A stretch of DNA of 64,000 nucleotides from the IMG/VR virus record IMGVR_UViG_3300036766_000889; one strand, 5' to 3'. A program made the position numbers and the translations under genes. Of the stretch, positions 1 through 17,266 are shown piece after piece; the first letter of the stretch is position 1, and each line of letters begins with the position of its first letter. The DNA is from a virus. The notes beneath the pieces are model-generated. The model saw nothing but the letters and a program-made list of their open reading frames with translations. It did not search any database and had not been told where the DNA came from.

Positions 1-252
1 TTTCGCTGCAAAGTCCGTCTCGCAATTGATTTCAACCACAGCAACGATCTTCCCATCACTGTGGTTGTAGGAAAACACCTTGCCTTCGGTCGCAAGTCGC
101 CCCGCCCGTTCGGCAGCCTTGATGATGCCGCGCTTCTTGAGCAACTCCAGCGCTTGCTCCACATCGCCACCTGACTCTTCAAGCGCTTTACGACAAGCAT
201 CCATCCCGACGCCCGATCGCATTCTAATTTCTTTGATTTTTTCTACACTCAT
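1..252 (-). CDS. tsf: Translation elongation factor Ts, N-terminal part (runs off window; absent from ORF track)
   Basis: Manual translation gives MSVEKIKEIRMRSGVGMDACRKALEESGGDVEQALELLKKRG...ATEG...VEINCETDFAAK: UBA-like N-terminus plus the NCETDF signature of EF-Ts. Confidence 0.93.
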   Translation of the reverse strand, partial: MSVEKIKEIRMRSGVGMDACRKALEESGGDVEQALELLKKRGIIKAAERAGRLATEGKVFSYNHSDGKIVAVVEINCETDFAAK

Positions 253-289
253 AGTGTATACTACACTAGAGAGTTGCGTATTTACGGGG

Positions 290-532
290 ATGAGTAAACC
301 TACCCCCCCCCCCCCATATATTACGCTAGCTGAGACTGCGCCACGTACCGGAGTCGTAACCGTTGTACTTACGGACTTCGTGCCTCGGACAACACTTGCA
401 GTGACGAAACAGCGGACGTTGCTGAGCGTCTACTTCGGCTCCGTAGAGCCAAGCGTGCGCGCCGAACAGACAAAACAAGGCGTCAAGGAAACGAAGCATC
501 AGTTCAACCTATTGTTGGGGTGGTTGTCTTGA
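290..532 (+). CDS. Small hypothetical protein containing a C13 tract
   Basis: ATG at 290 within track ORF 80..532; upstream part of that ORF is antisense to tsf. Confidence 0.4.
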   Translation: MSKPTPPPPYITLAETAPRTGVVTVVLTDFVPRTTLAVTKQRTLLSVYFGSVEPSVRAEQTKQGVKETKHQFNLLLGWLS

Positions 533-593
533 CTGGCCTTCTAAAGCTAGCAGCTCGAACAATCGTTTCATGGCCGCTGCTAACGCAGCAAAG

Positions 594-962
594 TCATCGG
601 CGTCCAGGTCGTCCAACATTTTCCCAAACATGGGCTTTAGCCGAGCTTCTGGTATGAGCCCGAGAATTCGGGACACCTGCATGGCTATCCGAACCACTTC
701 CCCGGTATTGCTGTCGATTTTTTTTCTTCACGGCCCCCGTCTCCTTCGGAGACGAAGTAAACCAGTTCGCCATCGACGGATCTGTGCCTTTGTTGTGGAG
801 GCTGACCGGAAAGCTAACGCGCAGCCATTTAGACGAAGGCGTCGTTTTCTTGCAGAAGCCGCATGTGGTGTTTCCGTCTGGCCGACGTTCCATCGTAGTT
901 TTCAACGGGCTGTCTTTCCCGCAGGAGGGGCAGAACCCGTATCCGTTATCACGTGCTTTCAT
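594..962 (-). CDS. Zn-ribbon protein, possibly frameshift-fused to ORF 509..697
   Basis: CPSC and CGFC pairs; A8 tract at the frame junction. Confidence 0.55.
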   Translation of the reverse strand: MKARDNGYGFCPSCGKDSPLKTTMERRPDGNTTCGFCKKTTPSSKWLRVSFPVSLHNKGTDPSMANWFTSSPKETGAVKKKNRQQYRGSGSDSHAGVPNSRAHTRSSAKAHVWENVGRPGRR

Positions 963-968
963 AGAATT

Positions 969-1184
969 TCAAAAAGCGCAGCCGGTTGACACGGGATCTG
1001 GACATCGAAACCTTCGCGGCCCGTTGTAACTGTCCATAGTCACTATCAGAGTTTTACCACATGTACAGACTCCAGAAACAGGCTCGCCTCCAATCCAGAT
1101 TTGGCTGGGAACATAGACAGTCGGAATCAGATGGAACGTGGAATATGACCTGAAAGAGACGCCTCCGAGAATCACCCATTTCAT
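969..1184 (-). CDS. Small Cys-containing hypothetical protein
   Basis: MKWVILGG...CTCG...RCPD...CAF; co-directional with neighbours. Confidence 0.5.
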   Translation of the reverse strand: MKWVILGGVSFRSYSTFHLIPTVYVPSQIWIGGEPVSGVCTCGKTLIVTMDSYNGPRRFRCPDPVSTGCAF

Positions 1185-1197
1185 GTGGTCGCCTGTA

Positions 1198-1596
1198 TTA
1201 GCGCTTTGGTTCATTTGTATCTTCTACGGGTAGTCCAGCGGCCTGCTGAAGCCGCGTTGCGTCTTGAAGAAGAAGCTTCGTTTCAGCTTTGAGCGCTTTC
1301 ACTTCAAGTCCAAGCATCTGAACTCTCAAAGCCAACAACTCCATCGGCTGTGCTTCAGCCTTCTGTTTTTCCTGAAGCTCTGCCCAAGCCACGAGTACCG
1401 CCCATACTGTAGCGACGCTCAAAAGGACAAGGACAAGAAAAAGTGGGCCGAACTCAACCACCTGGTACCAGAAGTAATGTCGTGCGGACTCCTTGCGTTC
1501 TTCGTCCGTTGGAAACCCTGGAAACCCTGGGAGCAGGATGCGGTCTGGACGTGTCGCTGGCGGTTTACTCATCGGTGCACTCCAACGTGTTCTCAA
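1198..1596 (-). CDS. Single-pass membrane protein with coiled coil
   Basis: Hydrophobic FGPLFLVLVLLSVATVWAVLVAW followed by heptad-like segment. Confidence 0.6.
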   Translation of the reverse strand: MRTRWSAPMSKPPATRPDRILLPGFPGFPTDEERKESARHYFWYQVVEFGPLFLVLVLLSVATVWAVLVAWAELQEKQKAEAQPMELLALRVQMLGLEVKALKAETKLLLQDATRLQQAAGLPVEDTNEPKR

Positions 1597-1639
1597 CGTA
1601 TAATCACATGGTCATAAAACATTAATATCACATAGTTTC

Positions 1640-2197
1640 ATGGAATTGAAATTATGTCGAAAATGTGGACAGGAAAAACCTTTGATAAAATTTCCGAAAC
1701 AGAGGAAAAATCCTATGAAAAGGACAAGTCCCTGTCTCAGATGCTCAGAGAAAAAACGATTAAATAATCCAAATAGTGTAATCGGGAAAACTGTTTTACG
1801 CAGAAGAAAACTGTATTTATCAAATCCAAATAACATTCCTTCTATCATTATTCGGAGCGCGAGACATTATGATAAAACTCATACTAAATACGGTTTTGAC
1901 TTGGATCATGATTTTGTTTCTGCATTAATTGCAGATGGATGTAAATACTGTGGTATTAATAATGTGAGGATGACGCTTGATCGTATTGATAATCAGTTAG
2001 GACATCTGAAATCAAATGTTCATCCAGCTTGTGTGCGATGCAATCATATCCGTGGTTCAATGCCATTTGATGCCTGGATGAATATGGTTCCTTCGATTCG
2101 AAAGACGTATGAACTTGGTCTATTCGCAGATTGGTGGATCGACACCAAGTCCATTTATAAATCAAATATCATACCATTTGTCTCTTCTAGTACCTAG
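1640..2197 (+). CDS. HNH-type (homing) endonuclease
   Basis: CKYCG...TLDRIDNQLGHLKSNVHPACVRCNH motif; AT-rich; opposite strand to neighbours. Confidence 0.8.
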   Translation: MELKLCRKCGQEKPLIKFPKQRKNPMKRTSPCLRCSEKKRLNNPNSVIGKTVLRRRKLYLSNPNNIPSIIIRSARHYDKTHTKYGFDLDHDFVSALIADGCKYCGINNVRMTLDRIDNQLGHLKSNVHPACVRCNHIRGSMPFDAWMNMVPSIRKTYELGLFADWWIDTKSIYKSNIIPFVSSST

Positions 2198-2799
2198 GGT
2201 TCTAGTTCAGCGTCCCAATACAACCAAGAACGCCAGCATTCTGGAATGTCCTTTATAGATTCCATACGTAAAGCTGCAATCGGAAGCGACTTGGGACGTA
2301 CCGGCTGATTCAAAAGGTACATACCGGCTTCAGCGGGCGTACGATTACGCTTGATGGAGTTGCACGGGTAGCAACTCATCACGATGTTCTCCCAGACCGT
2401 TTTACCGCCTTGGGCACGAGGAATTACATGATCAAAATTCAGATCACGCATATTGTGCTTGGCTCCGCAATACTGACAAGCGAACTTGTCTCGAGTCAGC
2501 ACGTTGATCCGGCTGAACTTCACTACTTTCTTCTTGCCGATCTTACCGAGCAGTCGGATTACGGCCGGAACCCTAACCACGAACGTATCCGGGTCAGAGT
2601 CCTCCACGCCAAGCTCGAACCAGGCAAGCATCTGCTTGCTGACCTGCAAGCCATTAGCTGCGTCCCTGGAAATAGCCCGGACAACGTCCGTGTACAGCTC
2701 TACGACTTCAGCACGACCGTCGTGAAGAAGCTGGGCAGCACGCTGCCAACTCACGACTCGGTGAGGTTGAAAACCAATATCTAGGACTAATGTTCTCAT
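2194..2799 (-). CDS. HNH endonuclease, McrA-like
   Basis: RDKFACQYCG...DHVIPRAQGG...WENIVMSCYPCNSIK; directly downstream of Ro60/Y RNA cluster. Confidence 0.88.
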   Translation of the reverse strand: MRTLVLDIGFQPHRVVSWQRAAQLLHDGRAEVVELYTDVVRAISRDAANGLQVSKQMLAWFELGVEDSDPDTFVVRVPAVIRLLGKIGKKKVVKFSRINVLTRDKFACQYCGAKHNMRDLNFDHVIPRAQGGKTVWENIVMSCYPCNSIKRNRTPAEAGMYLLNQPVRPKSLPIAALRMESIKDIPECWRSWLYWDAELEP

Positions 2800-2811
2800 A
2801 TTAATTATTAA

Positions 2812-2937: not shown

Positions 2938-2967
2938 ACAATAAATGGAAACTATACCATAAACATA

Positions 2968-3173
2968 TGCTGACAACAAGGTTCGCAGAGATGTTTACAT
3001 TATCGGTGTAATCCCATGCAGCATTTGTCAACGTTATTTATACTGACAACGAAATTCGTAGAGATTTTTACAGTTTAAATGTAATCCCTACAGCATTTGT
3101 CAGCGTTATTTGTACTGACGACAAAATTTACAGAGATTCTTTTTACCTGTAGTCCCTGCAGCATTCGTCAGTG
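2968..3173 (-). ncRNA. Tandem array of three ~61-66 nt short Y-RNA-like hairpins (2968-3033, 3041-3105, 3113-3173)
   Basis: Each has closing stem (C/T)TGAC(A/G)A...T(C/T)GTCAG, a 5' AATGCTG motif and a 3' AA(T/C)(T/C)T(T/C)GT motif resembling the YrlA stem; starts 5 nt after the Ro60 stop. Confidence 0.7.
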
Positions 3174-3178: not shown

Positions 3179-4735
3179 TTATCCTACACCTATCATTTTC
3201 TCAATCTTTTCGACCCAGGCATCTTTATTGCCACCGTCAATGAAACTTGAAATCACACCGAACACTGCATCACTGAAACCACCAACGTTCAAACGGTCTT
3301 CATCGGTGATTACTTGTGCAGTTTGATTCGGTGTTAGGTCAATACACACAAGCTTGGCTTTACGATTACGCCTCTTGAAAGACAACCACTCGGTCGATAA
3401 ACCGGTACCTCTACGATAACCCCTATCAGCCCAGCTTTCGTTGTCGGAGACATATATCACAAGGTCAGCATTTGCATTTTCCTCGTTAAGCAAAGCGAGT
3501 GGAGCAGAACAGGTGGTACCGCCGCCTCCCACACTTGCAATTTGGGTAGCTAGAGTCATCACACTATCACGAGGATTGATCTTCAAATCAACAACATCTG
3601 TTTCAAACGGGATAACTCTTGCGTTTGGATTCTTGCGCAAAATCGCGGCAGCAATCAACGCAGCTATGTCTATGCAACGAGCCTTAGATGTAGCACCTTG
3701 ACGTTGTCCAGTAATCGGGCTACTCATGCTACCGGAAACGTCTACACAGACTACAACGTTACAATTGTAGCTCGGCACGTTGTTCAGCGAATGCTCCATC
3801 GCGTCCTGTAACGCGTTGGTCAATTCGGCAGGAATGTCAGTTGCATTCAAATATGCCATAAGTAGCTGGTATGGAAATACCCGCGCCTTATTGATTTCAT
3901 CAACATTGCGCAAACGTGCAGCCAGTAGACTAACCATTTCTGGGTTGTCTAGCACACCGTGACGCTTGAACGTGTTGAGATTCATACGAGTCATCTGCCA
4001 ACCAGCATTCTTTGCAACGGTTGTCCAGCCAGCCGTATCAAGATTAAGAGAGTCTAGCATCTGAAATGGGACGTCCGGGATGATCTGACTACGGTCAACC
4101 TTATAATTCTCGTACGCACGTACGAGCTCCGGAAGGTGTTCGACAGTATACGGCTTACCAATTAGATAAGCATACAACGCCTTACGATCGTCGCTAACCG
4201 GGTTCGGGCGAACCATCTTAACCAGATCAGATAGAGACGGCTTCTTTCCGACGCTATCTCGGAAAAGTTGGTCCGATGACCGAGATGCAAACCATTCACG
4301 AAGCATGCGTCGAGGAGCAGAACCAAAGGACTTACGGGACGTCTTACCAGATCGGACAATTTGCGCGAAATTTCTCGCCATTTTGCCATTATCGATAACT
4401 CGTGGAAACACAAGCTTAGCTGCAAGTAAGCCTTCTGGACCACGAGAACATAAATGCGCAAGCAAAATCGCTGGCATATCCTTCATATGACCAAGTTGGC
4501 GTGCATATACAGCGACTTTAGCCACATAACTAACTTCACAGTTAGCTGCGTGCTTCAAAACTTCATCCAACTGGTCAGACGCAGCAGCATAGTACGTGTT
4601 ACCGAAGCAACCGGTAGACGCAATTTGAGCAAGAGCTTGCTTTGACGTAAGCGAGTATGCATTCCCACCGGCATGATTTACAGCCGTTGAAACATGAGCC
4701 TGAGGCAGAGTGTTAAATAGTTGTTGATTTGTCAT
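3179..4735 (-). CDS. rsr: Ro60/TROVE domain RNA-binding protein with vWA domain
   Basis: N-terminal VNHAGGNAY, KDMPA, MTRMNLNTF, ARVFPYQLL, and vWA MIDAS VCVDVSGSM...GGGT...VSDNESW. Confidence 0.95.
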   Translation of the reverse strand: MTNQQLFNTLPQAHVSTAVNHAGGNAYSLTSKQALAQIASTGCFGNTYYAAASDQLDEVLKHAANCEVSYVAKVAVYARQLGHMKDMPAILLAHLCSRGPEGLLAAKLVFPRVIDNGKMARNFAQIVRSGKTSRKSFGSAPRRMLREWFASRSSDQLFRDSVGKKPSLSDLVKMVRPNPVSDDRKALYAYLIGKPYTVEHLPELVRAYENYKVDRSQIIPDVPFQMLDSLNLDTAGWTTVAKNAGWQMTRMNLNTFKRHGVLDNPEMVSLLAARLRNVDEINKARVFPYQLLMAYLNATDIPAELTNALQDAMEHSLNNVPSYNCNVVVCVDVSGSMSSPITGQRQGATSKARCIDIAALIAAAILRKNPNARVIPFETDVVDLKINPRDSVMTLATQIASVGGGGTTCSAPLALLNEENANADLVIYVSDNESWADRGYRRGTGLSTEWLSFKRRNRKAKLVCIDLTPNQTAQVITDEDRLNVGGFSDAVFGVISSFIDGGNKDAWVEKIEKMIGVG

Positions 4736-4780
4736 GATCTAACCTATAATAACATACAATCAAATAAGTTGTTTCAATCG

Positions 4781-4854
4781 TGCTGTGCGCGAGACTCGAA
4801 CTCGCAACCTCTCGGACCTAAACCGAGCGCCTCTGCCAATTGGGCTACCACAGC
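4781..4854 (-). tRNA. tRNA-Leu(TAG), short variable loop
   Basis: CTCGG-TTTAGGT-CCGAG anticodon arm; GCGAG-TTCGAGT-CTCGC T-arm. Confidence 0.85.
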
Positions 4855-4861
4855 AAAACAA

Positions 4862-5009
4862 CGGATGGGTTGGACTTACACCAACAGAGCGCCTGGGCTG
4901 GAGTCGAACCAGCTTCTTACCGTTCAGGAGCAAGCTCGTCAGCTTCGCAGCCTCGGTCGATATTCAGCTCGCTAGCAGCCTATTCCCGCCATTCACTGCG
5001 TTGCCATCC
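4862..5009 (-). ncRNA. tRNA-like RNA with two T-arm modules
   Basis: GGATGG/CCATCC terminal stem, GTTGG-TGTAAGT-CCAAC and GCTGG-TTCGACT-CCAGC arms; no anticodon arm found. Confidence 0.5.
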
Positions 5010-5095
5010 TGGTGCAAGAGATGGGATTTGAACCCATAAGACCTTTCGGTCGGATGATTTTAAGTCATCTGCGTATTCCATTCCGCCACTCTTGC
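5010..5095 (-). tRNA. tRNA-Leu(TAA)
   Basis: GATGA-CTTAAAA-TCATC arm, long variable arm, encoded CCA. Confidence 0.95.
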
Positions 5096-5117
5096 GTAAC
5101 GATTGATCTATTAAATC

Positions 5118-5219
5118 AACCAACCACCAAACAATGCGGGCATCGAACCCACTCAGGTTTCACAGCAGTCTCCAGAGTTGCCACGCCCTGCTGGGGCTAC
5201 TCTTGTTTGGCGGTTGGTT
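5118..5219 (-). ncRNA. Structured RNA with 17-bp closing stem and T-arm
   Basis: AACCAACCGCCAAACAA/TTGTTTGGTGGTTGGTT; GTGGG-TTCGATG-CCCGC. Confidence 0.55.
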
Positions 5220-5262
5220 CATTAAACAGAGTTGCATACGACCCAATTAACTGAATTTACAA

Positions 5263-5916
5263 CTAAACTCGTCCGGAAGCGAAAGCCTTAGCAAATTCTC
5301 GTTTGAAAACTTCCGTCTGATCTTCGGGAAGTATGCCGACGTGGCGATAGAATTCAGTAATTGGGCGTACTACGGGAGCCAAAAAGCTTTCTCGTGATCC
5401 TCTCTGGCCCATGACTGTGGCTTCAATTGGTGTTGCCTTACGGGCGTAATAATTCCAGTTTTTCAAGGAAGTAAGAAATAAAGCGTAGGCCATATTTCCT
5501 ACAACATCCACGATAGCTGCCATATGATGGCCAACGCCATCATTGTGCGTGCAAATAGACCCAACTTTGATCATAGACAAAGGTATGACAGGTGGCGTGA
5601 TATCCGAAACTAGGGGAATTACTTTTTCATCAACGAGACTAAAAGGAGGTGGGAACTCCTCGAGATACTTCAGCATCTCTTCAGCTTTCTGCCGTGGTAG
5701 CGTCGAATCATTATCAAATGCAATAATAGTTGCCGAAGCAAAAATGAACTCATGAACCCCAACATCAGTGCGCGTATAAAACGTTCGAAAAAAACCTTTT
5801 TTTCCACGCAACACGCCACATGTCCACTCTATCATCGTTGCAACAGGCTTTGACTTTGGTATCGCTTTCCCACTGATATAATCTTTCAATGTGAAATCGT
5901 CGTCATTCATAGTCAA
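5263..5916 (-). CDS. Hypothetical protein
   Basis: 217-aa ORF, co-directional, overlaps upstream stop. Confidence 0.7.
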   Translation of the reverse strand: MTMNDDDFTLKDYISGKAIPKSKPVATMIEWTCGVLRGKKGFFRTFYTRTDVGVHEFIFASATIIAFDNDSTLPRQKAEEMLKYLEEFPPPFSLVDEKVIPLVSDITPPVIPLSMIKVGSICTHNDGVGHHMAAIVDVVGNMAYALFLTSLKNWNYYARKATPIEATVMGQRGSRESFLAPVVRPITEFYRHVGILPEDQTEVFKREFAKAFASGRV

Positions 5917-6119
5917 TGTCCAGTTTGAGTACTCGATTTTTCTTCTTTACTCAACCCTTCACCACAGTTACCACAGTTACCACTATGACATAGACCAAAA
6001 CATACAATTATGAACAAAGCTAAAATTGCTGAGTCATCTTTTCTTCGTGCCATTGCTACAAGAACAGCAGTAACTCCGAAAATCATAGCAAGAATTAAAG
6101 TGTTTGTTGATATATCCAT
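5913..6119 (-). CDS. Small two-TM membrane protein with Cys-rich tail
   Basis: AAGGAG SD upstream; two hydrophobic segments. Confidence 0.7.
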   Translation of the reverse strand: MDISTNTLILAMIFGVTAVLVAMARRKDDSAILALFIIVCFGLCHSGNCGNCGEGLSKEEKSSTQTGH

Positions 6120-6135
6120 AAACTCCTTGTATCAA

Positions 6136-6218
6136 TGGTTGCGGGCGAAGGAATTGCACCTACTTGTCCGAGGAACCGGGTTATGAGCCCGGTGGGTTTC
6201 TGTTACCCCATGCCCGCA
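6136..6218 (-). tRNA. tRNA-Met(CAT), initiator-like
   Basis: CCGGG-CTCATAA-CCCGG (consecutive G-C pairs), weak U1-A72, CCA; enlarged variable region. Confidence 0.8.
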
Positions 6219-6235
6219 TAATGTAACGAATTCAG

Positions 6236-6308
6236 TACGGGGTGCGGGACTCGAACCCGCCTCAAACTGCCGTGTAAAAGCAGCGCACTCCCTGAATGCG
6301 AACCCCGC
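6236..6308 (-). tRNA. tRNA-Val(TAC)
   Basis: CTGCT-TTTACAC-GGCAG; T-arm GCGGG-TTCGAGT-CCCGC. Confidence 0.88.
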
Positions 6309-6397
6309 ATAATTATTTCACAACGCGACTTGTTTTCCACAACGTTTACATCGGGCGTCAGGTTCGCCACGTCGTTTCCACCAGTCACGAATTCCAT

Positions 6398-7114
6398 TCA
6401 TGGAATACTAACCTCTCTTGCGTGCCGTTCTTGATTTCGTTTGGAACGCTCTGTCTCAAGTGAACCAATCACATGTTCAAGAATCTTTGCGACAGTTGCA
6501 TAGGATCCGACCTCACAAACGAACGACATCATGCCGTCTTCGTAAACCTTGAAGGTTTCTTCGGGCAGCCCAAGCATGTCGATTCCTTCGCAATACACAC
6601 TTTTGTGGCTGCCAGCCCGGTAAATGCGGCCGTCTTTTCTTATGATGGTGCCGGATGCCCAGTTTTTGTTGTACCACTCATCCGACCCATCGGGCGGCTT
6701 CTCTTTTTTCGTATAACCAACATAACGTTCAACTTCGGCCGCGTACTTCTCTGGGCTCCATTCCGAGTACATCACATGATAGGGGATGTGGATTGGAGAG
6801 TCCGAAATCACCACGACCTTGATATTGTAGAAGTTGTCTCGGATGAAGCAATAGGCCGATACTTGATTGTATGGCGTGAACCTGAAGCAGGAGACCGGAA
6901 GTCCTACTGATTTACTAGTTTGTGTCCCTACAATTCTTGGTGGGTACACTTCATCCTGACTGTAGTTAGGAAGGATGGCCGCCACACCACCAATTTTTAG
7001 GATCTGGTTTTCTACACCACTCCTATAGATCAGATCTTCATCTGGCGCGTTTGTACTGCCCCAGGTTTTGAGGTCGATGCCGTTGGCATAAATTGCGTTT
7101 AGTTCTTGCATCAC
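6398..7114 (-). CDS. Hypothetical protein
   Basis: 238-aa ORF coupled to the HD gene. Confidence 0.75.
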   Translation of the reverse strand: MMQELNAIYANGIDLKTWGSTNAPDEDLIYRSGVENQILKIGGVAAILPNYSQDEVYPPRIVGTQTSKSVGLPVSCFRFTPYNQVSAYCFIRDNFYNIKVVVISDSPIHIPYHVMYSEWSPEKYAAEVERYVGYTKKEKPPDGSDEWYNKNWASGTIIRKDGRIYRAGSHKSVYCEGIDMLGLPEETFKVYEDGMMSFVCEVGSYATVAKILEHVIGSLETERSKRNQERHAREVSIP

Positions 7115-9866: not shown

Positions 9867-9938
9867 GGGCCCTATGACAGAATCGAACTGTCCTAACGTG
9901 CTTACAAAACACGGACATCACCACAATGTTTATAGGGC
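9867..9938 (-). tRNA. tRNA-Thr(TGT)
   Basis: CGTGT-TTTGTAA-GCACG. Confidence 0.88.
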
Positions 9939-9983
9939 AAGCATACGTCACAAATTGACGGTTTAAATCATATCCCGGTATAG

Positions 9984-10052
9984 TGGAGAGACCGGGAATT
10001 GAACCCGGCGCGGTCGGTTTGCAAGACCAACCTCCGCCCCAGCGGCCTCCCC
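9984..10052 (-). tRNA. tRNA-Ala(TGC), short D-arm
   Basis: TTGGT-CTTGCAA-ACCGA; G3.U70. Confidence 0.82.
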
Positions 10053-10080
10053 GAAATTTTTATCGAGTGTCTAAAGGTGT

Positions 10081-10365
10081 ATGATGAAACCACTAGAAGC
10101 CCTAGACAGTGCGATAAGTTATGGTCTCAGGCACCATCAATTCAATCGACGTGGAGTGTATGGAAAAACTCCCGGAGCAGTCATCGGACGAATTGGTGAC
10201 GAAGCTCGAGAAGCTTTATCCAAACTCACATCTGATGAATTAGCTGGTGTGCGTATTGAAAAAGATGAAGTAGGTAGTGATGATTATTTCGCGGATCTTG
10301 AGGTCCGGAAACTCAAGATAGCTTTTGATCAAAAATGCAAGTATCGTGTTACACGACCTTCATAG
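10081..10365 (+). CDS. Hypothetical protein inserted antisense in the tRNA array
   Basis: AAGGTG SD, 94 aa, fills the inter-tRNA gap. Confidence 0.65.
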   Translation: MMKPLEALDSAISYGLRHHQFNRRGVYGKTPGAVIGRIGDEAREALSKLTSDELAGVRIEKDEVGSDDYFADLEVRKLKIAFDQKCKYRVTRPS

Positions 10366-10436
10366 GGCCCGCACCGCGAATTGAACGCGGGTCTCGATCT
10401 TACCGGGATCGAATACTACCATTGTACTATGCGGGC
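10366..10436 (-). tRNA. tRNA-Thr(GGT), C33
   Basis: CGATC-CCGGTAA-GATCG. Confidence 0.82.
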
Positions 10437-10443
10437 AAACTAG

Positions 10444-10516
10444 AGCCCCTGATCGGGATCGAACCGACCTAGCCCTCCTTACGAAAGAGGTACCTCTCCA
10501 TTGAGGTGACAGGGGC
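10444..10516 (-). tRNA. tRNA-Thr(CGT)
   Basis: CCTCT-TTCGTAA-GGAGG. Confidence 0.9.
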
Positions 10517-10521
10517 ATCGG

Positions 10522-10592
10522 TGGAGATCCGGAGAATCGAACTCCGATTTCTAGCTTGCAAGGCTAGCACACGCCCGTTGTGTTAGATCCCC
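10522..10592 (-). tRNA. tRNA-Ala(TGC)
   Basis: CTAGC-CTTGCAA-GCTAG; G3.U70. Confidence 0.9.
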
Positions 10593-10601
10593 ATGATACA
10601 G

Positions 10602-10673
10602 TGGACGTGGCTGGAATCGAACCAGCGGCTTCCTGCGAGTCATGCAGGCACTCGGCCTCTGAGCTACACGTCC
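10602..10673 (-). tRNA. tRNA-Val(GAC)
   Basis: CCTGC-ATGACTC-GCAGG. Confidence 0.88.
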
Positions 10674-10681
10674 GTATAAAT

Positions 10682-10757
10682 TGGTAGGCCGTGAGGGGAT
10701 CGAACCCTCTCCTGTCGCTTATAAGGCGACTGCACTGAACCACTGTGCTAACGGCCC
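10682..10757 (-). tRNA. tRNA-Ile(TAT)
   Basis: GTCGC-CTTATAA-GCGAC; CCA end. Confidence 0.9.
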
Positions 10758-10761
10758 ATAA

Positions 10762-10950
10762 CTATTTCGAAGACTTGATCAATTCCGTGATTCGCATGTG
10801 CTGAAGAGTCAAAATCGCGGCTATCTGTGCTTGCGTCATGCTACCAATGACATCTAGCGCAGACTGAAACAAATCTATGGACGGATGTCCCTTGTCCAGC
10901 AAAGAAGCTATGTATCGTTTGATCACAATCTGCTCTTCTTCGTATTCCAT
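10762..10950 (-). CDS. Small hypothetical protein
   Basis: AGGAGG SD; 62 aa. Confidence 0.7.
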   Translation of the reverse strand: MEYEEEQIVIKRYIASLLDKGHPSIDLFQSALDVIGSMTQAQIAAILTLQHMRITELIKSSK

Positions 10951-11014
10951 GATTCCTCCTATGCTATGCTACAAAACCGGTCCATGCAGAGATAATCGAA
11001 CTCCCATAGTTCGC

Positions 11015-11569
11015 CTATAACAACAAACGTCTGGACTCCAGGCTACTCTCCGAAGACTCTCGATCGGCTAACTCATGCAACTCGCCATGACAGTTGGCGC
11101 AGACCAGCATGGTCTTATCCAATTCCAGCTTCAACTTAGCCCAGCCTGATACCGATCTTGTTGCTACCGTGAAATCCTTACTTGCTGGATCCGTATGGTG
11201 GAAAACCATCGAACGAAGACACTTATCATAACCGCAGCGACAACATACCCCGCCTTTATAGGCGACGGCCATGGCTTTGAGCGATGTTCGTTTTCGGTTG
11301 GCTACGCAAGAGTTGCAGAAAACCCTGGTGGCCCCGCGCCTTGCGCTTCGCAAATAACTATATTTGCGAAAACAGCTGGTGCACCTAATTTCTACAGGCT
11401 TCCGGGTATGCCTAGATCCAGGCAAAATTGGCCGCGAATTTCTGGAACCGTAGGGAGAGCAGGTAAAGCAATACTTCCTCTTGGAAAGAGCCATCCGCCT
11501 TCCGTTTATAATTACCGTGGCTGGTATTTCAACGTCGCAAGCCAAGCACCGCTTAGTGGTAGTAGACAT
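11015..11569 (-). CDS. HNH homing endonuclease with Zn-finger N-terminus
   Basis: YKGGVCCRCGY...FHHTDP...LVCANCHGELH. Confidence 0.88.
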   Translation of the reverse strand: MSTTTKRCLACDVEIPATVIINGRRMALSKRKYCFTCSPYGSRNSRPILPGSRHTRKPVEIRCTSCFRKYSYLRSARRGATRVFCNSCVANRKRTSLKAMAVAYKGGVCCRCGYDKCLRSMVFHHTDPASKDFTVATRSVSGWAKLKLELDKTMLVCANCHGELHELADRESSESSLESRRLLL

Positions 11570-11631
11570 AACGCCATATCATACCATAAGACGAGCGCAT
11601 TAGAAAAGCCAGGACGACCTCAAGCCAGCGT

Positions 11632-11705
11632 TGGTTGGCCCGGAGGGAATTGAACCCTCGCCGCCCGCTTATCAAGCGGATGCACGACCTTCGTGCTGCG
11701 GGCCA
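11632..11705 (-). tRNA. tRNA-Ile(GAT)
   Basis: CCGC-TTGATAA-GCGG; CCA end. Confidence 0.85.
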
Positions 11706-11737
11706 ATGACATCCCCTTCCACTAGACGATGCGTGGA

Positions 11738-11814
11738 TGGTGCTCCAGGCAGGACTCGAACCTGCATAAAAGCCGCTTTAGGAAAGCGGTGCCCATCCTT
11801 TGGACCACTGGAGC
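11738..11814 (-). tRNA. tRNA-Arg(CCT)
   Basis: CCGCT-TTCCTAA-AGCGG; CCA end. Confidence 0.92.
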
Positions 11815-11816
11815 AT

Positions 11817-11893
11817 TGGGTTACATGGCGGGAATCGAACCCAGCTAACACCTGATCCACAATCAGGCCGCTATCCATTAGCGTTCATGCAAC
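11817..11893 (-). tRNA. tRNA-His(GTG)
   Basis: CCTGA-TTGTGGA-TCAGG; G-1:C73; CCA end. Confidence 0.88.
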
Positions 11894-12000
11894 ATAACAC
11901 AGTTTAGGGCCCTTGCGAGGGGTCAATCTCTTACGAGATTCTGCTTCCCGTCACTACAAAGTTTGGCTTTGCGTTTCACCAAGAGTCCCATCCTGTGCGG

Positions 12001-12074
12001 TCGGAGTGACTGGAATCGAACCAGCTCAATCTCTTGCTCCCGAAGCAAGCGGGCAGCCATTACCCCACACTCCG
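12001..12074 (-). tRNA. tRNA-Pro(CGG)
   Basis: CTTGC-TTCGGGA-GCAAG; C1-G72. Confidence 0.9.
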
Positions 12075-12191
12075 TAAAAGAAGACCCCTGATAGCACTCT
12101 ATGGCTTGCTGTACCCGTGAGAGATGGGCCGACGTGCAAACCGAGTAATCTACCGTTTCTCAATCCCTGCCGGGGTCACCGCAGGAAACAG

Positions 12192-12263
12192 TCGAGGTGG
12201 CAAGAATCGAACTTGCGATCTCTGCATCCCAAATGCAGCGCCATTCCACTTGGCTACACCTCG
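12192..12263 (-). tRNA. tRNA-Pro(TGG)
   Basis: CTGCA-TTTGGGA-TGCAG. Confidence 0.92.
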
Positions 12264-12371
12264 ATAAGGGCTGCCGAAGAAGGCGTATCCTTCAGCTTAG
12301 TAGCTTTGCCCTAGCTAGCGTGTCTTTCAGCACGCGACTGGACGCCAGCCAGTCTGACCGTTGCCGGTCGG

Positions 12372-12456
12372 CGGAAGACGGAGGACATGCTCCCCAGACG
12401 CTTGCGCGTCCCCTTGGATTAGCAATCCAGGATGATCCTTGATCATTTCGTCTTCC
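12372..12456 (-). tRNA. Non-canonical 8/4 tRNA-Ser(GCT), allo-tRNA-like
   Basis: 8-bp acceptor GGAAGACG/CGTCTTCC-G, 6-bp D-stem ATGATC/GATCAT, long V-arm, 4-bp T-stem. Confidence 0.7.
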
Positions 12457-12482
12457 AAATTGTCACAGCTCTTTGTTGATTA

Positions 12483-12680
12483 TCAGCGACGATGAAAAGC
12501 CACGATGAGAAGGATCACTCCATCCTTGTCTTGGTAGCGCCATTCCCCGCGATGCTTTTCGTACCGCTCCAGGCTACCCAAAAGACCACGGGCTTGATTC
12601 CTGGTTAGATCAAACCACGGTCCCCATGATTTGGAGCCGTGGAAGCGACAAGCGGTGTACTCGATCCATCCGTGTTCCAT
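12483..12680 (-). CDS. Small hypothetical protein
   Basis: 65-aa co-directional ORF in inter-tRNA gap. Confidence 0.55.
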   Translation of the reverse strand: MEHGWIEYTACRFHGSKSWGPWFDLTRNQARGLLGSLERYEKHRGEWRYQDKDGVILLIVAFHRR

Positions 12681-12738
12681 GACCTAAAGACGTTTGCCTT
12701 TTAGCCAACTGACACATGGCGGAGAAAATAGGAGTCAG

Positions 12739-12819
12739 CGGAAACCGGACGAGAACGCCATGCCTTGCGGCACACACCATTTTCGAGATGGGTCTTGCTC
12801 CTCAGCAAGTTCAGTTTCC
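12739..12819 (-). tRNA. Non-canonical 8/4 tRNA-Ser(CGA) with truncated T-loop
   Basis: GGAAACTG/CGGTTTCC-G, 6-bp D-stem CTTGCT-GAGG-AGCAAG, CCAT-CTCGAAA-ATGG, V-arm GTGCC-GCAA-GGCAT. Confidence 0.6.
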
Positions 12820-12834
12820 AGAGAGCGGGACCAT

Positions 12835-13122
12835 TCAAGGTCGAACTCTGTCTTGCTCCTGCAAGTTCCGTTTCCAATCAGAAATCGTACCGCCCAAGGT
12901 CGAACTCTTGTCTTGCTCCTGCAAGTTCCGTTTCCAATCAGAAATCGTACCGCCCAAGGTCGAACTCTTGCGGGTTCGATCGTTTCCGATCCGGTTTTTT
13001 AACCAGGCAATGTGCAGGGCTGGTGTTGCTTGCGTTTTACCATTACCATTCTTTGCTGAGTCCAACTCCTGTTTCCAGTACAACTCCTGTTTCCGGTATA
13101 GTTCACTTTCCATTTCGTTCAT
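12835..13122 (-). CDS. Small hypothetical protein running into the 60-bp repeat
   Basis: GAGGTG SD before ATG. Confidence 0.45.
   Translation of the reverse strand: MNEMESELYRKQELYWKQELDSAKNGNGKTQATPALHIAWLKNRIGNDRTRKSSTLGGTISDWKRNLQEQDKSSTLGGTISDWKRNLQEQDRVRP
12849..12970. repeat. Exact 60-bp tandem duplication built from tRNA fragments
   Basis: TGTCTTGCTCCTGCAAGTTCCGTTTCCAATCAGAAATCGTACCGCCCAAGGTCGAACTCT x2. Confidence 0.95.
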
Positions 13123-13145
13123 AATTCACCTCATGGATAATACAG

Positions 13146-13228
13146 CGGAAGACGCCGGAATCGAACCGACTCAGCCTTGCGGCCTTATTTGCTTTCCAAG
13201 CAAACTCCTGACCATTCGGATGTCTTCC
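13146..13228 (-). tRNA. tRNA-Ser(GGA)
   Basis: TTTGC-TTGGAAA-GCAAA; long V-arm; G73. Confidence 0.9.
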
Positions 13229-13233
13229 GGTAG

Positions 13234-13317
13234 CGGAGAAGGCGAGAATCGAACTCGCTCAGCCTTTTGGGCCTTATCGGTATTCAAAGCCGACTCCTGA
13301 CCATTCGGGTCTTCTCC
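13234..13317 (-). tRNA. tRNA-Ser(TGA)
   Basis: TCGGC-TTTGAAT-ACCGA; long V-arm; G73. Confidence 0.88.
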
Positions 13318-13354
13318 AACTCGTTACACCGTTCTCTGAGAGTTTGTTCTCCGT

Positions 13355-13534
13355 TCATGCAAGTGTGACTAACTTCCAACCGATACCTTCATCCATCATG
13401 TCAGTATTTGCTATATAAATATCAGAATTTGGAGATTCAACGTCTTCCATAACAGCAGTTCGATGTTCATGACTCAGTTTCAATACGCGCCATAACTTTC
13501 CTTTGCGTTCCCAAACTTCATTTACTTGAGGCAT
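13355..13534 (-). CDS. 59-aa hypothetical protein (below ORF-track cutoff)
   Basis: MPQVNEVWERKGKLWRVLKLSHEHRTAVMEDVES...GWKLVTLA*. Confidence 0.55.
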   Translation of the reverse strand: MPQVNEVWERKGKLWRVLKLSHEHRTAVMEDVESPNSDIYIANTDMMDEGIGWKLVTLA

Positions 13535-13574
13535 GTTTGAACTCTACCGCGTAAGCCACAGACAGTACACTTAG

Positions 13575-13646
13575 CGTCCCGTATCGGAATCGAACCGATG
13601 TTCCCTGACTGAGAATCAGGTTGCCTGGCCTCTAGCAGAACGGGAC
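13575..13646 (-). tRNA. tRNA-Glu(CTC)
   Basis: CCTGA-TTCTCAG-TCAGG. Confidence 0.92.
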
Positions 13647-13647
13647 A

Positions 13648-13724
13648 TGGCGGGACCGACGAGAATCGAACTCGCCTCGACCTGGCGTGACAAGCCAGCG
13701 GCGTCTCCAGACGCCTCCGATCCC
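13648..13724 (-). tRNA. tRNA-Asp(GTC), extended D-stem
   Basis: CTGGC-TTGTCAC-GCCAG; D-arm GGCGTC-TGGA-GACGCC; CCA end. Confidence 0.88.
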
Positions 13725-13829
13725 AAAAGCCGACCGCGACCAACGGAAGTTGTTGATCCGCTGACCAGTGATTCATCGTGCGCACGAACGCCACGGCCAC
13801 GGCGTGTCTTGGCTAGCTAGACCTTCGAC

Positions 13830-13903
13830 TGGTTCGGGCGGAGAGGATCGAACTCCCATAGAAGGTATCAAAAACCTTCGTCTTTCCATTAGACGACGCC
13901 CGA
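13830..13903 (-). tRNA. tRNA-Gln(TTG)
   Basis: AAGGT-TTTTGAT-ACCTT; U1-A72; CCA end. Confidence 0.9.
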
Positions 13904-13912
13904 ATAACACGG

Positions 13913-13983
13913 CAGGGGTAGAGGGAATCGAACCCACGTTGACTGCTTCAGAAACAGCTGCCAAACCACTTGGCGATACCCCA
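13913..13983 (-). tRNA. tRNA-Gln(CTG)
   Basis: CTGT-TTCTGAA-GCAG. Confidence 0.88.
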
Positions 13984-13989
13984 ACGAAG

Positions 13990-14123
13990 TGGACACAACG
14001 GGAATCGAACCCGCTAATTCCTGTTTTTGCAGGATACGGAAAACTGCAGTGACTGATATTTTCGGGTGGCCATCTCCCTACTAACTCAGATCCAGTTTTC
14101 CAGCGCACCGTGGCTTTGTGCCC
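13990..14123 (-). ncRNA. 134-nt tRNA-like RNA with alanine-identity acceptor stem
   Basis: GGGCACA/TGTGTCC-A (G3.U70, A73), T-arm GCGGG-TTCGATT-CCCGT, 9-bp GGAAAACTG/CAGTTTTCC arm in place of an anticodon arm. Confidence 0.65.
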
Positions 14124-14136
14124 GTAACAATTGTAG

Positions 14137-14208
14137 TGCTCCCACGGAGAATCGAACTCCGCTCGCCGGGGTGAAAACCAAGCATTCTGACCACTAAACT
14201 ATGGGAGC
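14137..14208 (-). tRNA. tRNA-Glu(TTC)
   Basis: Loop TTTTCAC; imperfect anticodon stem. Confidence 0.82.
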
Positions 14209-14282
14209 AAACTTTCTAATGTGGTACGTGGGGTCAAACTTAATCTTCAACATCCGGACCAGTACCTTGGTCCGTGAATTTG

Positions 14283-14354
14283 AGCGACTGATGTGAATCG
14301 AACACATGAAGTCCATTTTGGCAAAATGGTGCCTTACCACTAGGCTACAGTCGC
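14283..14354 (-). tRNA. tRNA-Gly(GCC)
   Basis: CCATT-TTGCCAA-AATGG; U73. Confidence 0.92.
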
Positions 14355-14397
14355 GTGCGGACCCTCAAACACTGTTACTGCATGTTGATTAATACTG

Positions 14398-14470
14398 TGG
14401 CTAGGGTCGGTATCGAACCGACTACACCCCGGGCTTCAACCGAGTGCTCTACCGTTTGAGCTACCTAGCC
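14398..14470 (-). tRNA. tRNA-Phe(GAA)
   Basis: CTCGG-TTGAAGC-CCGGG. Confidence 0.9.
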
Positions 14471-14473
14471 AAA

Positions 14474-14657
14474 ACCTTGATCTTCGGCAGTTGGTTCCGT
14501 AGCAAGGAACCGGCCAGACTTAGCTTTTGGAGGTTGCTAGACCCTCCTACTTGCCGACCGCATGAGCCTTTCGAGGGGCGTGCGTTCTATAGGCCATAAG
14601 CCTGCTGTCTGGTATTGAAGCCTACGACCCGCGAGTTAACTCAGGTCTGATCAAGGT
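14474..14657 (-). ncRNA. Unassigned ~184-nt multibranch RNA
   Basis: 9-bp terminal stem ACCTTGATC/GATCAAGGT, inner CCAGAC/GTCTGG helix and several hairpins; fills the Trp-Phe gap. Confidence 0.55.
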
Positions 14658-14659
14658 AG

Positions 14660-14728
14660 CAAGCCGTGACGGAATCGAACCGCCGCCTACTGGTTTGGAA
14701 TCAGTTCGGTCACCATGACCTACGGCTT
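14660..14728 (-). tRNA. tRNA-Trp(CCA)
   Basis: Loop TTCCAAA; G73; short D-arm. Confidence 0.85.
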
Positions 14729-15653
14729 ATTTCAATAAATTATTCGACAGAGCAGTTGTTTTAACAACTGGAGTGTTCTTACTAGCATGGTATCTAAGCA
14801 TCACTTTAGAATTTTTGCATTTCTTACAAATTAAATATGGTCTTCCAGTATCTGACTCTCCTGTTCTAACATAACAGTTTTCAATAGGAACAATACCATG
14901 CACTTTACAAAGTTTATTGGTAGGCGACCTATCCTGTTGAAATTTAGTTTTAGCTTTTTCTGATATTGTTTTTGCTATTTTTGCCTTGCAATCGTTACTA
15001 ATAGATCTTCCAACAGCGGCAAGTTTGATATTCATCCTTGCCTTATCCGAAAATTTTCGGCCTCGACTACGAGAAGCGTTTTTTTCTATGATTTCATGAG
15101 TAAGAATGGGTGGTTTGCAACGTCCATCTCGATGAGCTTTTTTGGCTGCTATAGATATTTTTCTTTTCACATCCGGGAGAGCTTGAATATGACGTGATAT
15201 TTCAATTCTCTTTGCTCGAGATTCTGATGTATTGAGTGCTGCTTTATTTGCAGCACGAGCTTGAGGTGTATGAAATCTAAGGACGACACCGTTTTGTTTT
15301 TCTCGATACTCTGGACGATCCCATGGATTTCGACGAATTGGATGCGGCGTATGAGATCCGCCCTTCATTAAGTTAAATCCAAACTTTGGATCTCGCGTAT
15401 TTTCTTGTTCGATTATCGCTTCTTCAGTCGCATTTGCACCTTCAAGGTCCCGACTCATCGCCAGAACTTCATGGGAGAAGGCATCCTTGCCATACTTACG
15501 AATTGCATTCGGAAAATACCAACGTCCGCCCTTGGAATTCTTAGCTTGGGAGCAATGTTGATTCCAACGATGCATCATTGTATGGCTAGTTAAGCCAATG
15601 TAACGACGACCCGATTCTATATGAGTGTGACAGTAAATGGTCCAGCGTTTCAT
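14727..15653 (-). CDS. GIY-YIG homing endonuclease
   Basis: TIYCHTHIESGRRYIGLT...GFNLMKGG; basic C-terminal repeats. Confidence 0.9.
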   Translation of the reverse strand: MKRWTIYCHTHIESGRRYIGLTSHTMMHRWNQHCSQAKNSKGGRWYFPNAIRKYGKDAFSHEVLAMSRDLEGANATEEAIIEQENTRDPKFGFNLMKGGSHTPHPIRRNPWDRPEYREKQNGVVLRFHTPQARAANKAALNTSESRAKRIEISRHIQALPDVKRKISIAAKKAHRDGRCKPPILTHEIIEKNASRSRGRKFSDKARMNIKLAAVGRSISNDCKAKIAKTISEKAKTKFQQDRSPTNKLCKVHGIVPIENCYVRTGESDTGRPYLICKKCKNSKVMLRYHASKNTPVVKTTALSNNLLK

Positions 15654-15675
15654 GCTGAACCCAATCCATAAAGCT

Positions 15676-16092
15676 CTAACTTGACATGATTTCGATAACC
15701 TCGAGTTCTCGTAGAAAGTTAAGCAAAATTTCTGGAGTCATTTCCTTGAGAGGAAGCGCCTCAGTTTCCGCGATTACAGTGAAATCTCGTTCTTTGTATT
15801 CGCTCTTCTTACCGTAAACAAGTCGATCGATCTTTTGAATCATTCCACCATATGAAGATAGGATATAAACTGCACCCTTATGATGTTTACGATTGAGTAT
15901 GTCAAACTGAAATGACCAATTTTTATCTCCCCGGACGTATTTGTAAGGAGAATTTCGTGAACGTTGTTCGAATATCCGTTGTAAGAACGGGTCTTTACAA
16001 TCTAGTTCTTGCTCCTTCCAGCGCATTTCGCGCAAAACATTATTCAGGTAATCAAGTGAAGGGTTTACCTCTACTATGTATTTTCTTGACAT
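15676..16092 (-). CDS. Hypothetical protein
   Basis: 138-aa ORF ending LEVIEIMSS. Confidence 0.7.
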   Translation of the reverse strand: MSRKYIVEVNPSLDYLNNVLREMRWKEQELDCKDPFLQRIFEQRSRNSPYKYVRGDKNWSFQFDILNRKHHKGAVYILSSYGGMIQKIDRLVYGKKSEYKERDFTVIAETEALPLKEMTPEILLNFLRELEVIEIMSS

Positions 16093-16182
16093 AAATCGTA
16101 CCGTTGTTCGGCACGATTTATGGTGGTCGGTATTCCTCCATCATATCAACTATACATTGGAAATTAAAGAGTATCACACAAT

Positions 16183-16266
16183 TGGCTCCGAGTCCAGGAT
16201 TCGAACCTGGAATGGATTTCTCCGCACGGGTAACAACCGTGTGCCTTACCATTAGACTAACTCGGA
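16183..16266 (-). tRNA. tRNA-Asn(GTT) with long variable arm
   Basis: CACGG-TTGTTAC-CCGTG; V-arm GGA-GAAA-TCC; G73-CCA. Confidence 0.9.
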
Positions 16267-16336
16267 ATAAAAAACAATTCGCGCACCGAGCCATGCCGAG
16301 CAACCCCGATAGGGCCCGGTGCGCGTTGAAACAACT

Positions 16337-16353
16337 TATTCAATTGTCAAAGA
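16337..16353 (-). promoter_or_regulatory. boxA-like antitermination site
   Basis: TCTTTGACAATTGAATA resembles rrn leader boxA. Confidence 0.55.
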
Positions 16354-16404
16354 CTCAGACACTTAGCGTTCGGAGGTTGATCCCTGACGGGCCTCGTCGT
16401 GTCT

Positions 16405-16479
16405 TGGTCGGCAGCACGAGAATCGAACTCGCCTAAGCCTGGGTAAGAACCAGGTGCATCTCCTTGATGCTAACTGCCG
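16405..16479 (-). tRNA. tRNA-Lys(CTT)
   Basis: CCTGG-TTCTTAC-CCAGG; CCA end. Confidence 0.88.
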
Positions 16480-16506
16480 ATGTTTTCTTGAGCACTCAGT
16501 TTTTGT

Positions 16507-16698
16507 CTAATGTTTCGTTGTGGACTCTTCCTGTTCATTACCACACCAATGACAACGTTGAGTCATGACGCCTTCTTTGATACCGGCGTCTTCCCACATA
16601 CAAACACCGGTTCTTCCGCAGGGTGGAACTGGTTTAAGTAACTCACGTGTAGCATTTTTAAACTCACGTTCACGTTTGGTTAGTGTCCTAGTTTTCAT
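16507..16698 (-). CDS. Small Cys-rich hypothetical protein
   Basis: MKTRTLTKREREF...CGRTGVC...CHWCG. Confidence 0.55.
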   Translation of the reverse strand: MKTRTLTKREREFKNATRELLKPVPPCGRTGVCMWEDAGIKEGVMTQRCHWCGNEQEESTTKH

Positions 16699-16713
16699 GA
16701 CATGTTTCTTGGG

Positions 16714-16787
16714 TGGGACCGGCGGGACTTGAACCCGCAACCGTTCGGTTAAAAGCCGACTGCTGCTTCCGATTGAGCTACGGCCCC
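16714..16787 (-). tRNA. tRNA-Lys(TTT)
   Basis: TCGG-CTTTTAA-CCGA. Confidence 0.92.
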
Positions 16788-16848
16788 AAGGAATACTTGA
16801 GTGCAGTAGCTAGGTTTGAGTTCCTTCATGATTACCGTGACTTTCTTG

Positions 16849-16934
16849 TGGTGGAGCCGTGCAGAGTCGAACTGCCTAGTCTAAGACCCGGCGTTTACAG
16901 CGCCAGTCGCCTTCCGAGGACGAACCCCGGCTCC
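16849..16934 (-). tRNA. tRNA-Tyr(GTA)
   Basis: TGGCG-CTGTAAA-CGCCG; V-arm; ACCA end. Confidence 0.88.
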
Positions 16935-17015
16935 GTAATAGATACGAGAGCAGGTGAGCGTCGATAACTTTCGTGCAGTGGTTTGTGTGAATTGAACATT
17001 GTTATTTCGAACCCT

Positions 17016-17056
17016 AAAAACATTGAGACCGCCTCTAGTTTCCTAGGGCGGTCTCA
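17016..17056 (-). terminator. Attenuator terminator hairpin ahead of the tRNA array
   Basis: TGAGACCGCC-CTAG-GAAA-CTAG-A-GGCGGTCTCA followed by ATGTTTTT. Confidence 0.75.
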
Positions 17057-17083
17057 CGCGAACGAGTGTTCTTGTGATTCCGC

Positions 17084-17227
17084 CTACGTCGTATCCTCAT
17101 GGCTAATGGGGCTGACGGCTGGGCGTTGATTCCCTCCGAGCCATATAAATGACGATGTCGCTTCCAAGCGTACGCCATTCAGCGTCGGCTGGACCGTCGT
17201 CATATAAGATTTTATGGATCTGGACAT
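17084..17227 (-). CDS. Putative 47-aa attenuator leader peptide
   Basis: MSRSIKSYMTTVQPTLNGVRLEATSSFIWLGGNQRPAVSPISHEDTT*; starts 10 nt after the -10 box; stop overlaps the antiterminator strand. Confidence 0.6.
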   Translation of the reverse strand: MSRSIKSYMTTVQPTLNGVRLEATSSFIWLGGNQRPAVSPISHEDTT

Positions 17228-17237
17228 CGAAGTATTT

Positions 17238-17266
17238 ACTTTAGCACAGGCTGTTTATGGCGTCAA
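17238..17266 (-). promoter_or_regulatory. sigma70-type promoter of the tRNA operon
   Basis: TTGACG-17 nt-TAAAGT with extended TG. Confidence 0.75.

Follow-up and report, generated by a model that had tools for sequence, protein, structure and literature searches.

The 64,000-nucleotide (nt) stretch of DNA analysed here, called the window below, comes from the IMG/VR virus record IMGVR_UViG_3300036766_000889 and carries on its minus strand a long array of 39 transfer RNA (tRNA)-like genes (4780-16934, found with ARAGORN, Infernal and folding), which starts with Tyr(GUA), Lys(UUU), Lys(CUU) and Asn. It is likely that this phage array is controlled by ribosome-mediated transcription attenuation that reads the overall health of translation, and the spare tRNAs are probably made only when ribosomes stall. 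This view is based on the anatomy of the leader ahead of the array, its conservation, the covariation of its terminator, the amino-acid completeness of its peptide and computed folding states; from these we infer translation of the leader, the direction of the switch in vivo, co-transcription of the array and the trigger. The reason for whole tRNA sets in phage genomes has long been debated, with codon bias and protection from tRNA-cleaving nucleases as the arguments put forward. If the reading proposed here is true, a switch that opens the array only on faltering decoding would make the tRNA genes an on-demand reserve.

Anatomy and conservation of the leader

The leader begins with a sigma70-type promoter on the minus strand (17238-17266) that has a 17-nt spacer and an extended -10 box, followed by a near-leaderless open reading frame (ORF) of 47 codons ending in UAG (17084-17227, minus). 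An antiterminator strand (17080-17086, minus) overlaps this stop codon, and downstream of it lies an intrinsic terminator hairpin with a U-tract (17016-17056, minus, -26.5 kcal/mol). It is the only strong terminator on the minus strand in 17 kb; all other combinations of hairpin and U-tract there reach a strength of about -13 kcal/mol at most. A second mini-ORF (16895-16999, minus), partly conserved and with a Tyr-Arg motif, runs into tRNA-Tyr. After tRNA-Lys(CUU) stands a boxA-like antitermination site (16341-16356, minus), which is not a -35 box, because no -10 box follows it in the window. The promoter, the attenuator and the boxA-like site had been proposed in an initial annotation made from the letters of the window, and all of them are present and conserved in relatives.

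For the comparison of leaders, the DNA ahead of the first tRNA gene was examined in arrays reached through protein searches. The shared design consists of a promoter, a short ORF with UAG as its stop, a GC-rich strand lying over this codon, and a hairpin with a complementary 5' arm and a U-tract. It stands before Tyr-Lys-Lys tRNA arrays in about 30 relatives, heads nine of nine arrays of this type or a close variant reached through unrelated protein searches, and was absent from every other sub-array start in a set of 45. According to a covariance model there is one full leader copy per genome, at the head of the array. The design was also retrieved by a pattern search of metagenomes in which neither a tRNA nor the 3' strand of the terminator was specified: 29 of the 39 matches have a terminator and a U-tract, and the remaining 10 are chance matches with neither terminator nor tRNA. 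In 27 of the 29 terminator-bearing matches a tRNA-Tyr or tRNA-Lys follows, and the other two contigs end before this point. A strict attenuator pattern run on viral contigs gave 14 matches, 13 of them apparently due to chance.

All 32 full leaders contain an open frame of 44-67 codons that ends in UAG, and in 17 of these 32, promoter-like boxes are located at a distance of 180-250 nt upstream of the leader stop. The terminator covaries clearly, with 98.5% of cells paired and 21 double changes, a level reached in none of 500 shuffles. The complement of the terminator lies on the stop codon in all homologs, and in one relative (G008) all three strands are altered together with retained pairing. 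The boxA-like site is found after the first Lys or Gln tRNAs, with a sense-strand match in 14 of 19 homologs and none on the antisense strand, which fits a long untranslated transcript. In addition, a purine-rich run resembling a Shine-Dalgarno sequence is kept in all homologs at 12 nt upstream of the UAG; it usually pairs with an upstream strand and could pause the polymerase or hold the terminating ribosome. A second array family (L117, L120, L129, L013, L014) places Ile, Tyr and Asn directly after the promoter, with a boxA in some members; Ile-first arrays of other phages were found without a leader attenuator.

The sequence of the leader peptide is hardly conserved, with a median identity of 20% over the first 30 residues and 18 clusters. 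Nevertheless, all 20 amino acids occur in 27 of the 32 full leaders, compared with 4.9% of equal windows in real genes. Among the 18 independent clusters, 14 reach at least 19 amino acids within 45 codons, against a background of 4.6%, and the last 45 codons hold on average three amino acids more than shuffles of the same bases, a surplus present in 31 of 32 leaders. Trp, Cys, Met, His, Phe and Tyr appear about once each per leader at shifting positions. Judged from these counts, the feature that is kept in the leader peptide is its composition and not its sequence. The leader of the window comprises 19 amino acids, without Cys, and 36 different codons among 47 (p of about 0.05 and about 0.015, respectively, against the window's own genes); it shows no repeats of the cognate codons of one to three amino acids such as typify trpL-type leaders. 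An arrest peptide was also considered and is unsupported, since in most homologs the conserved Pro-Thr-Ser and Glu-Val-Gly ends correspond to the two arms of a hairpin in the RNA.

Direction of the switch and competing explanations

Folding was computed on nascent RNA ending after strand 3, the strand that can pair in the antiterminator (2:3) or in the terminator (3:4). The probability of the antiterminator exceeded 0.5 in 29-30 of 30 homologs, either without a ribosome or with a ribosome stalled 4-15 codons upstream of the stop. With a ribosome footprint over the stop the antiterminator is blocked by construction, and the terminator formed in 30 of 30. This geometry predicts termination once the ribosome has reached the stop codon and read-through when it stalls. 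In the proposed sequence of events, RNA polymerase would start at the promoter at 17266 and a ribosome would load on the 47-codon leader. Prompt decoding of every codon would bring the ribosome to the UAG, where it masks the antiterminator strand, so that the terminator forms and transcription ends some 65 nt past the leader UAG. If any charged tRNA were scarce or cleaved, or ribosomes failed for another reason, the ribosome would lag, the antiterminator would form first and the polymerase would enter the array, with the boxA shielding the long, non-coding RNA against Rho. This would yield the full tRNA set, transfer-messenger RNA (tmRNA) and the terminal HNH gene, translation would be restored and the switch would close again. 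We also lean towards the wider view of a closed feedback loop on host translation in this giant-phage clade, in which an all-amino-acid leader universally tests the tRNA supply and a slow codon opens the tRNA set with tmRNA, accompanied in the window phage by an end-healing enzyme and perhaps Ro60.

Several observations weigh against this reading. For the full-length leader without a ribosome, the equilibrium structure is the terminator fold in 26 of 30 homologs, hence the ON state, read-through, needs kinetic trapping. The core of the antiterminator is nearly invariant and shows weak covariation, and the antiterminator strand was fixed by the pattern search in 25 homologs. In many homologs the U-tract lies 3-5 nt away from the stem. 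The window has one of the most diverged leaders, in which Cys is missing, as is the strong pre-stop hairpin of most homologs. Finally, the sole RNA run consists of contigs of a relative at about 90% (share 0.06) that also span the upstream helicase and gives no evidence of expression or co-transcription. The inducibility claimed in the initial annotation is still favoured by the sequence data, given the conserved attenuator, the covarying terminator, a leader apparently built to hold every amino acid and the single strong terminator on the strand in 17 kb.

The same mechanism might serve a different purpose. A timing or dosage device, which would open when late phage protein synthesis drains the host tRNA pools or uncouples translation from transcription and would have no link to defence nucleases, is a serious contender that we place somewhat short of an even chance. 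The order of the genes argues against it, because the arrays open with Tyr, Lys, Lys and Asn or Gln, the tRNAs for these amino acids are common targets of anticodon nucleases, and the first four array genes in the window encode their own CCA. Moreover, RtcB, an RNA ligase or a CCA enzyme are often present in these genomes. On the other side, an all-amino-acid leader cannot separate cleavage from starvation or load, and the related Anabaena array responds to any ribosome inhibitor (PMC8421152). Within the attenuation reading, host tRNA-cleaving defence is suggested as the trigger.

A further question is how many genes belong to the switch. The initial annotation had regarded the whole region as an island with five functions, and as one attenuated transcript of 17 kb, selected as a rescue module including the HD protein, Ro60, Y RNAs and EF-Ts, this seems unlikely. 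In the window phage all these genes lie downstream of the attenuator on the same strand, no strong terminator occurs between 17016 and base 1, four relatives have EF-Ts and RtcB 5-10 kb beyond HNH_5 in the downstream direction, and HD domains of CCA enzymes heal cyclic-phosphate ends (PMC10673834). However, the relatives distribute these genes differently. Ro60 is present in three of nine same-leader records, in each case 16-23 kb upstream of the leader, i.e. before the switch, and without YrlA. Of five relatives, one (G005) has the stand-alone HD gene within its array and four have it outside, and a full CCA enzyme is encoded elsewhere in three relatives. EF-Ts occurs in one of nine same-leader records; where it is found it is followed by RtcB in five of five cases, opposite-strand genes separate it from HNH_5, and in L221 and L222 it stands directly behind a terminator. 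The window itself has promoter-like sites before Ro60, YrlA and EF-Ts and a convergent gene at 1640-2197. In contrast, HNH_5 closes the array in five relatives, on the same strand and 16-31 kb downstream of the leader, and tmRNA is part of the array both in the window and in four relatives and is absent from two. Because Ro60, HD and EF-Ts are usually elsewhere or behind their own terminator or promoter, gene order limits the conserved unit to the leader, the tRNAs, usually tmRNA, and HNH, whereas the remainder appears as cargo kept downstream in the window phage. Hence, tRNA replacement together with ribosome rescue by tmRNA holds as a function under the switch, while the case for end healing, Ro60 and EF-Ts in the same module is weak (one of five, three of nine and one of nine relatives). 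In the window phage the read-through transcript probably includes the HD gene; separate promoters are probable for Ro60, the Y RNAs and EF-Ts, the last of which is probably transcribed independently and followed by RtcB.

It is improbable that the terminator merely insulates a small-protein gene, with the tRNAs made from constitutive internal promoters and the array being a mobile cassette spread by homing endonucleases: several extended -10 sites and four nuclease genes do lie inside the block, and HNH genes and tRNA arrays are known to move together (PMC6409571, PMC8421152), but sigma70 sites are not enriched (19 versus 20.1 in shuffles), the window has no promoter between the leader terminator and tRNA-Tyr, the leader peptide keeps composition rather than sequence, and the terminator complement on the stop codon is conserved.

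Relation to known systems

The component set itself is already known from jumbo phages, and the novel part is the control, i.e. a promoter, a leader ORF, an antiterminator on the UAG, a covarying terminator and then boxA; no published case of attenuator control of a tRNA array was found in the literature searched, the coverage of which is incomplete. In the trpL, hisL, thrL and ilvL leaders, one to three cognate codons are repeated and a 1:2 hairpin masks strand 2. The phage leader resembles these amino-acid operon attenuators in that the position of the ribosome selects the 2:3 antiterminator or the 3:4 terminator, but its strand 2 lies on the stop codon and is unmasked by RNA, and all amino acids are sampled. 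A closer logic is known from actinobacteria, where the upstream ORF attenuator of whiB7/wblC leads to a Rho-independent terminator upon efficient translation and to an antiterminator upon stalling, and senses general translation stress including tRNA shortage (10.1101/2025.10.10.681568). Both systems have a long leader ORF and the same terminator/antiterminator logic; however, whiB7/wblC controls a transcription factor with an alanine-rich leader, whereas the leaders compared here precede tRNA genes, are phage-borne and are selected to keep one of every amino acid.

The trn operon of Anabaena PCC 7120 is a long supernumerary tRNA array induced by translation stress, with a co-regulated HNH neighbour and rtcB in the same response (PMC8421152, PMC10272220). 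The window likewise contains many co-oriented tRNA genes and a neighbouring HNH endonuclease, as in such an L-array, and its induction is predicted from the leader. In the same accounts the Anabaena array is plasmid-located, comprises 26 genes and is controlled by the TrcR repressor at the promoter; they describe no attenuator and mention no tmRNA in the portions consulted. Up to 67 tRNAs, tmRNA and EF-Ts have been reported from huge phages (PMC7162821), and RtcB, CCA enzyme and TROVE proteins from jumbo phages (PMC7824862). The sections of these two accounts available to us list the same parts, do not describe regulation of the arrays and do not single out a stand-alone HD half. Arrays of 30-49 tRNAs were common among the phages fetched here. 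If the attenuation reading is true, the leader of the window should answer starvation for 19 amino acids but not for cysteine, its relatives with 20 amino acids should answer all, and the leader would represent a portable sensor of general translation stress.

Genomic context and further contents of the block

The window is part of the genome of a large tailed phage, a large myophage, with baseplate wedge and other tail-type genes at 27-62 kb. Uncultured contigs, up to 510 kb long, make up its relatives, and no close cultured phage was found. The nearest named cellular relatives belong to Sorangiineae for the HD protein and to Kofleriaceae for EF-Ts, from which a host among the Myxococcota may be taken as a lead only; no host was identified when species genomes were searched with EF-Ts. 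An intein-bearing DnaB and an SNF2 helicase are encoded directly upstream of the tRNA block. The minus-strand orientation extends upstream to 23851, hence direction alone sets no island boundary. The block is also not fully co-directional, as had been assumed, since a plus-strand endonuclease gene lies inside it (1640-2197), and the notion of one promoter is doubtful given four extended -10 sites with five of six matching positions just before internal genes.

The annotated number of about 39 tRNA-like genes covering all 20 amino acids was borne out by a combination of tools. ARAGORN found 33 tRNAs and the tmRNA, every one on the minus strand; Infernal added Asp(GUC) at 13651-13725, Ser(UGA) at 13234-13318 and an odd tRNA with an AUU loop at 8144-8214; and relaxed ARAGORN added a second CAU tRNA at 7907-7976. 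Two Ser genes with 8-bp acceptor stems complete the count, GCU at about 12372-12456 from reading the sequence and CGA at 12738-12819 from folding. Both of these minus-strand genes have 4-bp T stems, and an exact 60-nt tandem repeat (12849-12968) within a short ORF duplicates the 5' part of the latter. CCA is encoded in 14 of the 38 listed tRNA genes. The odd gene (8141-8214, minus) is tRNA-shaped with an atypical loop, AUU or, if shifted, UUA, and an odd T-loop; related odd loops occur in G001 and G007. Besides the 39 genes there are a degenerate tRNA copy (about 10976-11035) and half a tRNA-Gly (about 9365-9398). The latter belongs to a minus-strand stretch at 9303-9400, where the 5' half of tRNA-Gly is followed by a relic of an HNH C-terminus and then an intact tRNA-Gly, an arrangement best read as a homing endonuclease scar; a similar stretch is present in G001.

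The tmRNA (8590-8982, minus; 103.6 bits, also found by ARAGORN) and, by profile matches, the HD protein, Ro60, the HNH gene and EF-Ts were all confirmed as annotated. The HD protein (7111-7866, minus) is a stand-alone C-terminal half of a CCA-adding enzyme, an HD domain with a tail, which matches only positions 211-457 of the 466 in the profile and lacks the nucleotidyltransferase head domain. Its metal ligands H54, H75, D76, H96 and D166 are kept and invariant in our alignment (A1), one further His being Tyr here, and the H, HD, H, D ligand pattern of a CCA-enzyme-type HD phosphohydrolase can be recognised in it. A split CCA-adding enzyme may exist in the relative L005, where one gene encodes a nucleotidyltransferase head (PolyA_pol, 3647-4810) and another, 5 kb away, an HD half (10001-10771), with genes for an RNA ligase and PTH2 close by. 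RtcB, CCA enzyme and SmpB, for which a check had been proposed, were not found among the window ORFs examined, and SmpB was not found in five relatives.

The Ro60/Rsr gene (vWA_Ro60, TROVE; 3179-4735, minus) has an extended -10 site at 4754 just upstream. Directly after its stop follow three stable tandem Y-like hairpins of about 65 nt (2966-3172, minus) with the Ro-binding motif or a one-base variant, and then a YrlA-type RNA (2809-2937, minus) with a promoter-like site at 2959. In bacteria, YrlA shares its strand with Ro60 and lies less than 4 kb away, additional Y RNAs of hairpin form (YrlB) exist, and YrlA is known from 22 phages (PMC4201824). The YrlA of the window, 242 nt downstream of Ro60 on the same strand, lies within this distance, but differently from bacterial loci the window has three tandem minimal hairpins downstream of Ro60, and this set was not found beside Ro60 in four other phages. 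The YrlA match to Rfam RF02553 is full-length (E 5.5e-13) and scores 64.5 bits, just below the gathering cut-off of 69.

The 3' end of the array is marked by the HNH_5 endonuclease (2194-2799, minus), with which the endonuclease VII/HNH-type gene on the plus strand (1640-2197) is convergent. Of EF-Ts only the N-terminus (1-252, minus) is included before the window ends, and a -10-like box stands 5 nt ahead of its start. Two more homing-type endonucleases and a SNase were found inside the block. An HNH homing-type endonuclease (11015-11569, minus) ends in the degenerate tRNA and has its own -10-like site, an extended one as before Ro60 and YrlA; the SNase is a staphylococcal-nuclease-fold protein (9430-9834, minus). 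The array also contains several RNAs other than tRNAs, for which no homologs were found in the fetched loci, all on the minus strand. A 185-nt multi-branch RNA with a 9-bp closing stem (14471-14657, z -2.8), without Rfam match, fills the gap between tRNA-Trp and tRNA-Phe. A rod-shaped RNA with a central bubble (8385-8562, -64 kcal/mol) directly after the tmRNA has a 6S-like shape but no Rfam match. A tRNA-like RNA (13988-14124) combines a G3-U70 acceptor stem and a T-arm with a long arm replacing the anticodon arm, and two T-arm-bearing RNAs (5112-5240 and 4860-5009) surround tRNA-Leu(UAA), the former with a 17-bp closing stem (z -4.0). Finally, a GIY-YIG homing endonuclease (14727-15653, minus) is a mobile passenger of the array that is absent from a close relative, with the joint at 14731-15675, and two more members of its family lie elsewhere in the window (42251-43225 and 44548-45387, minus).

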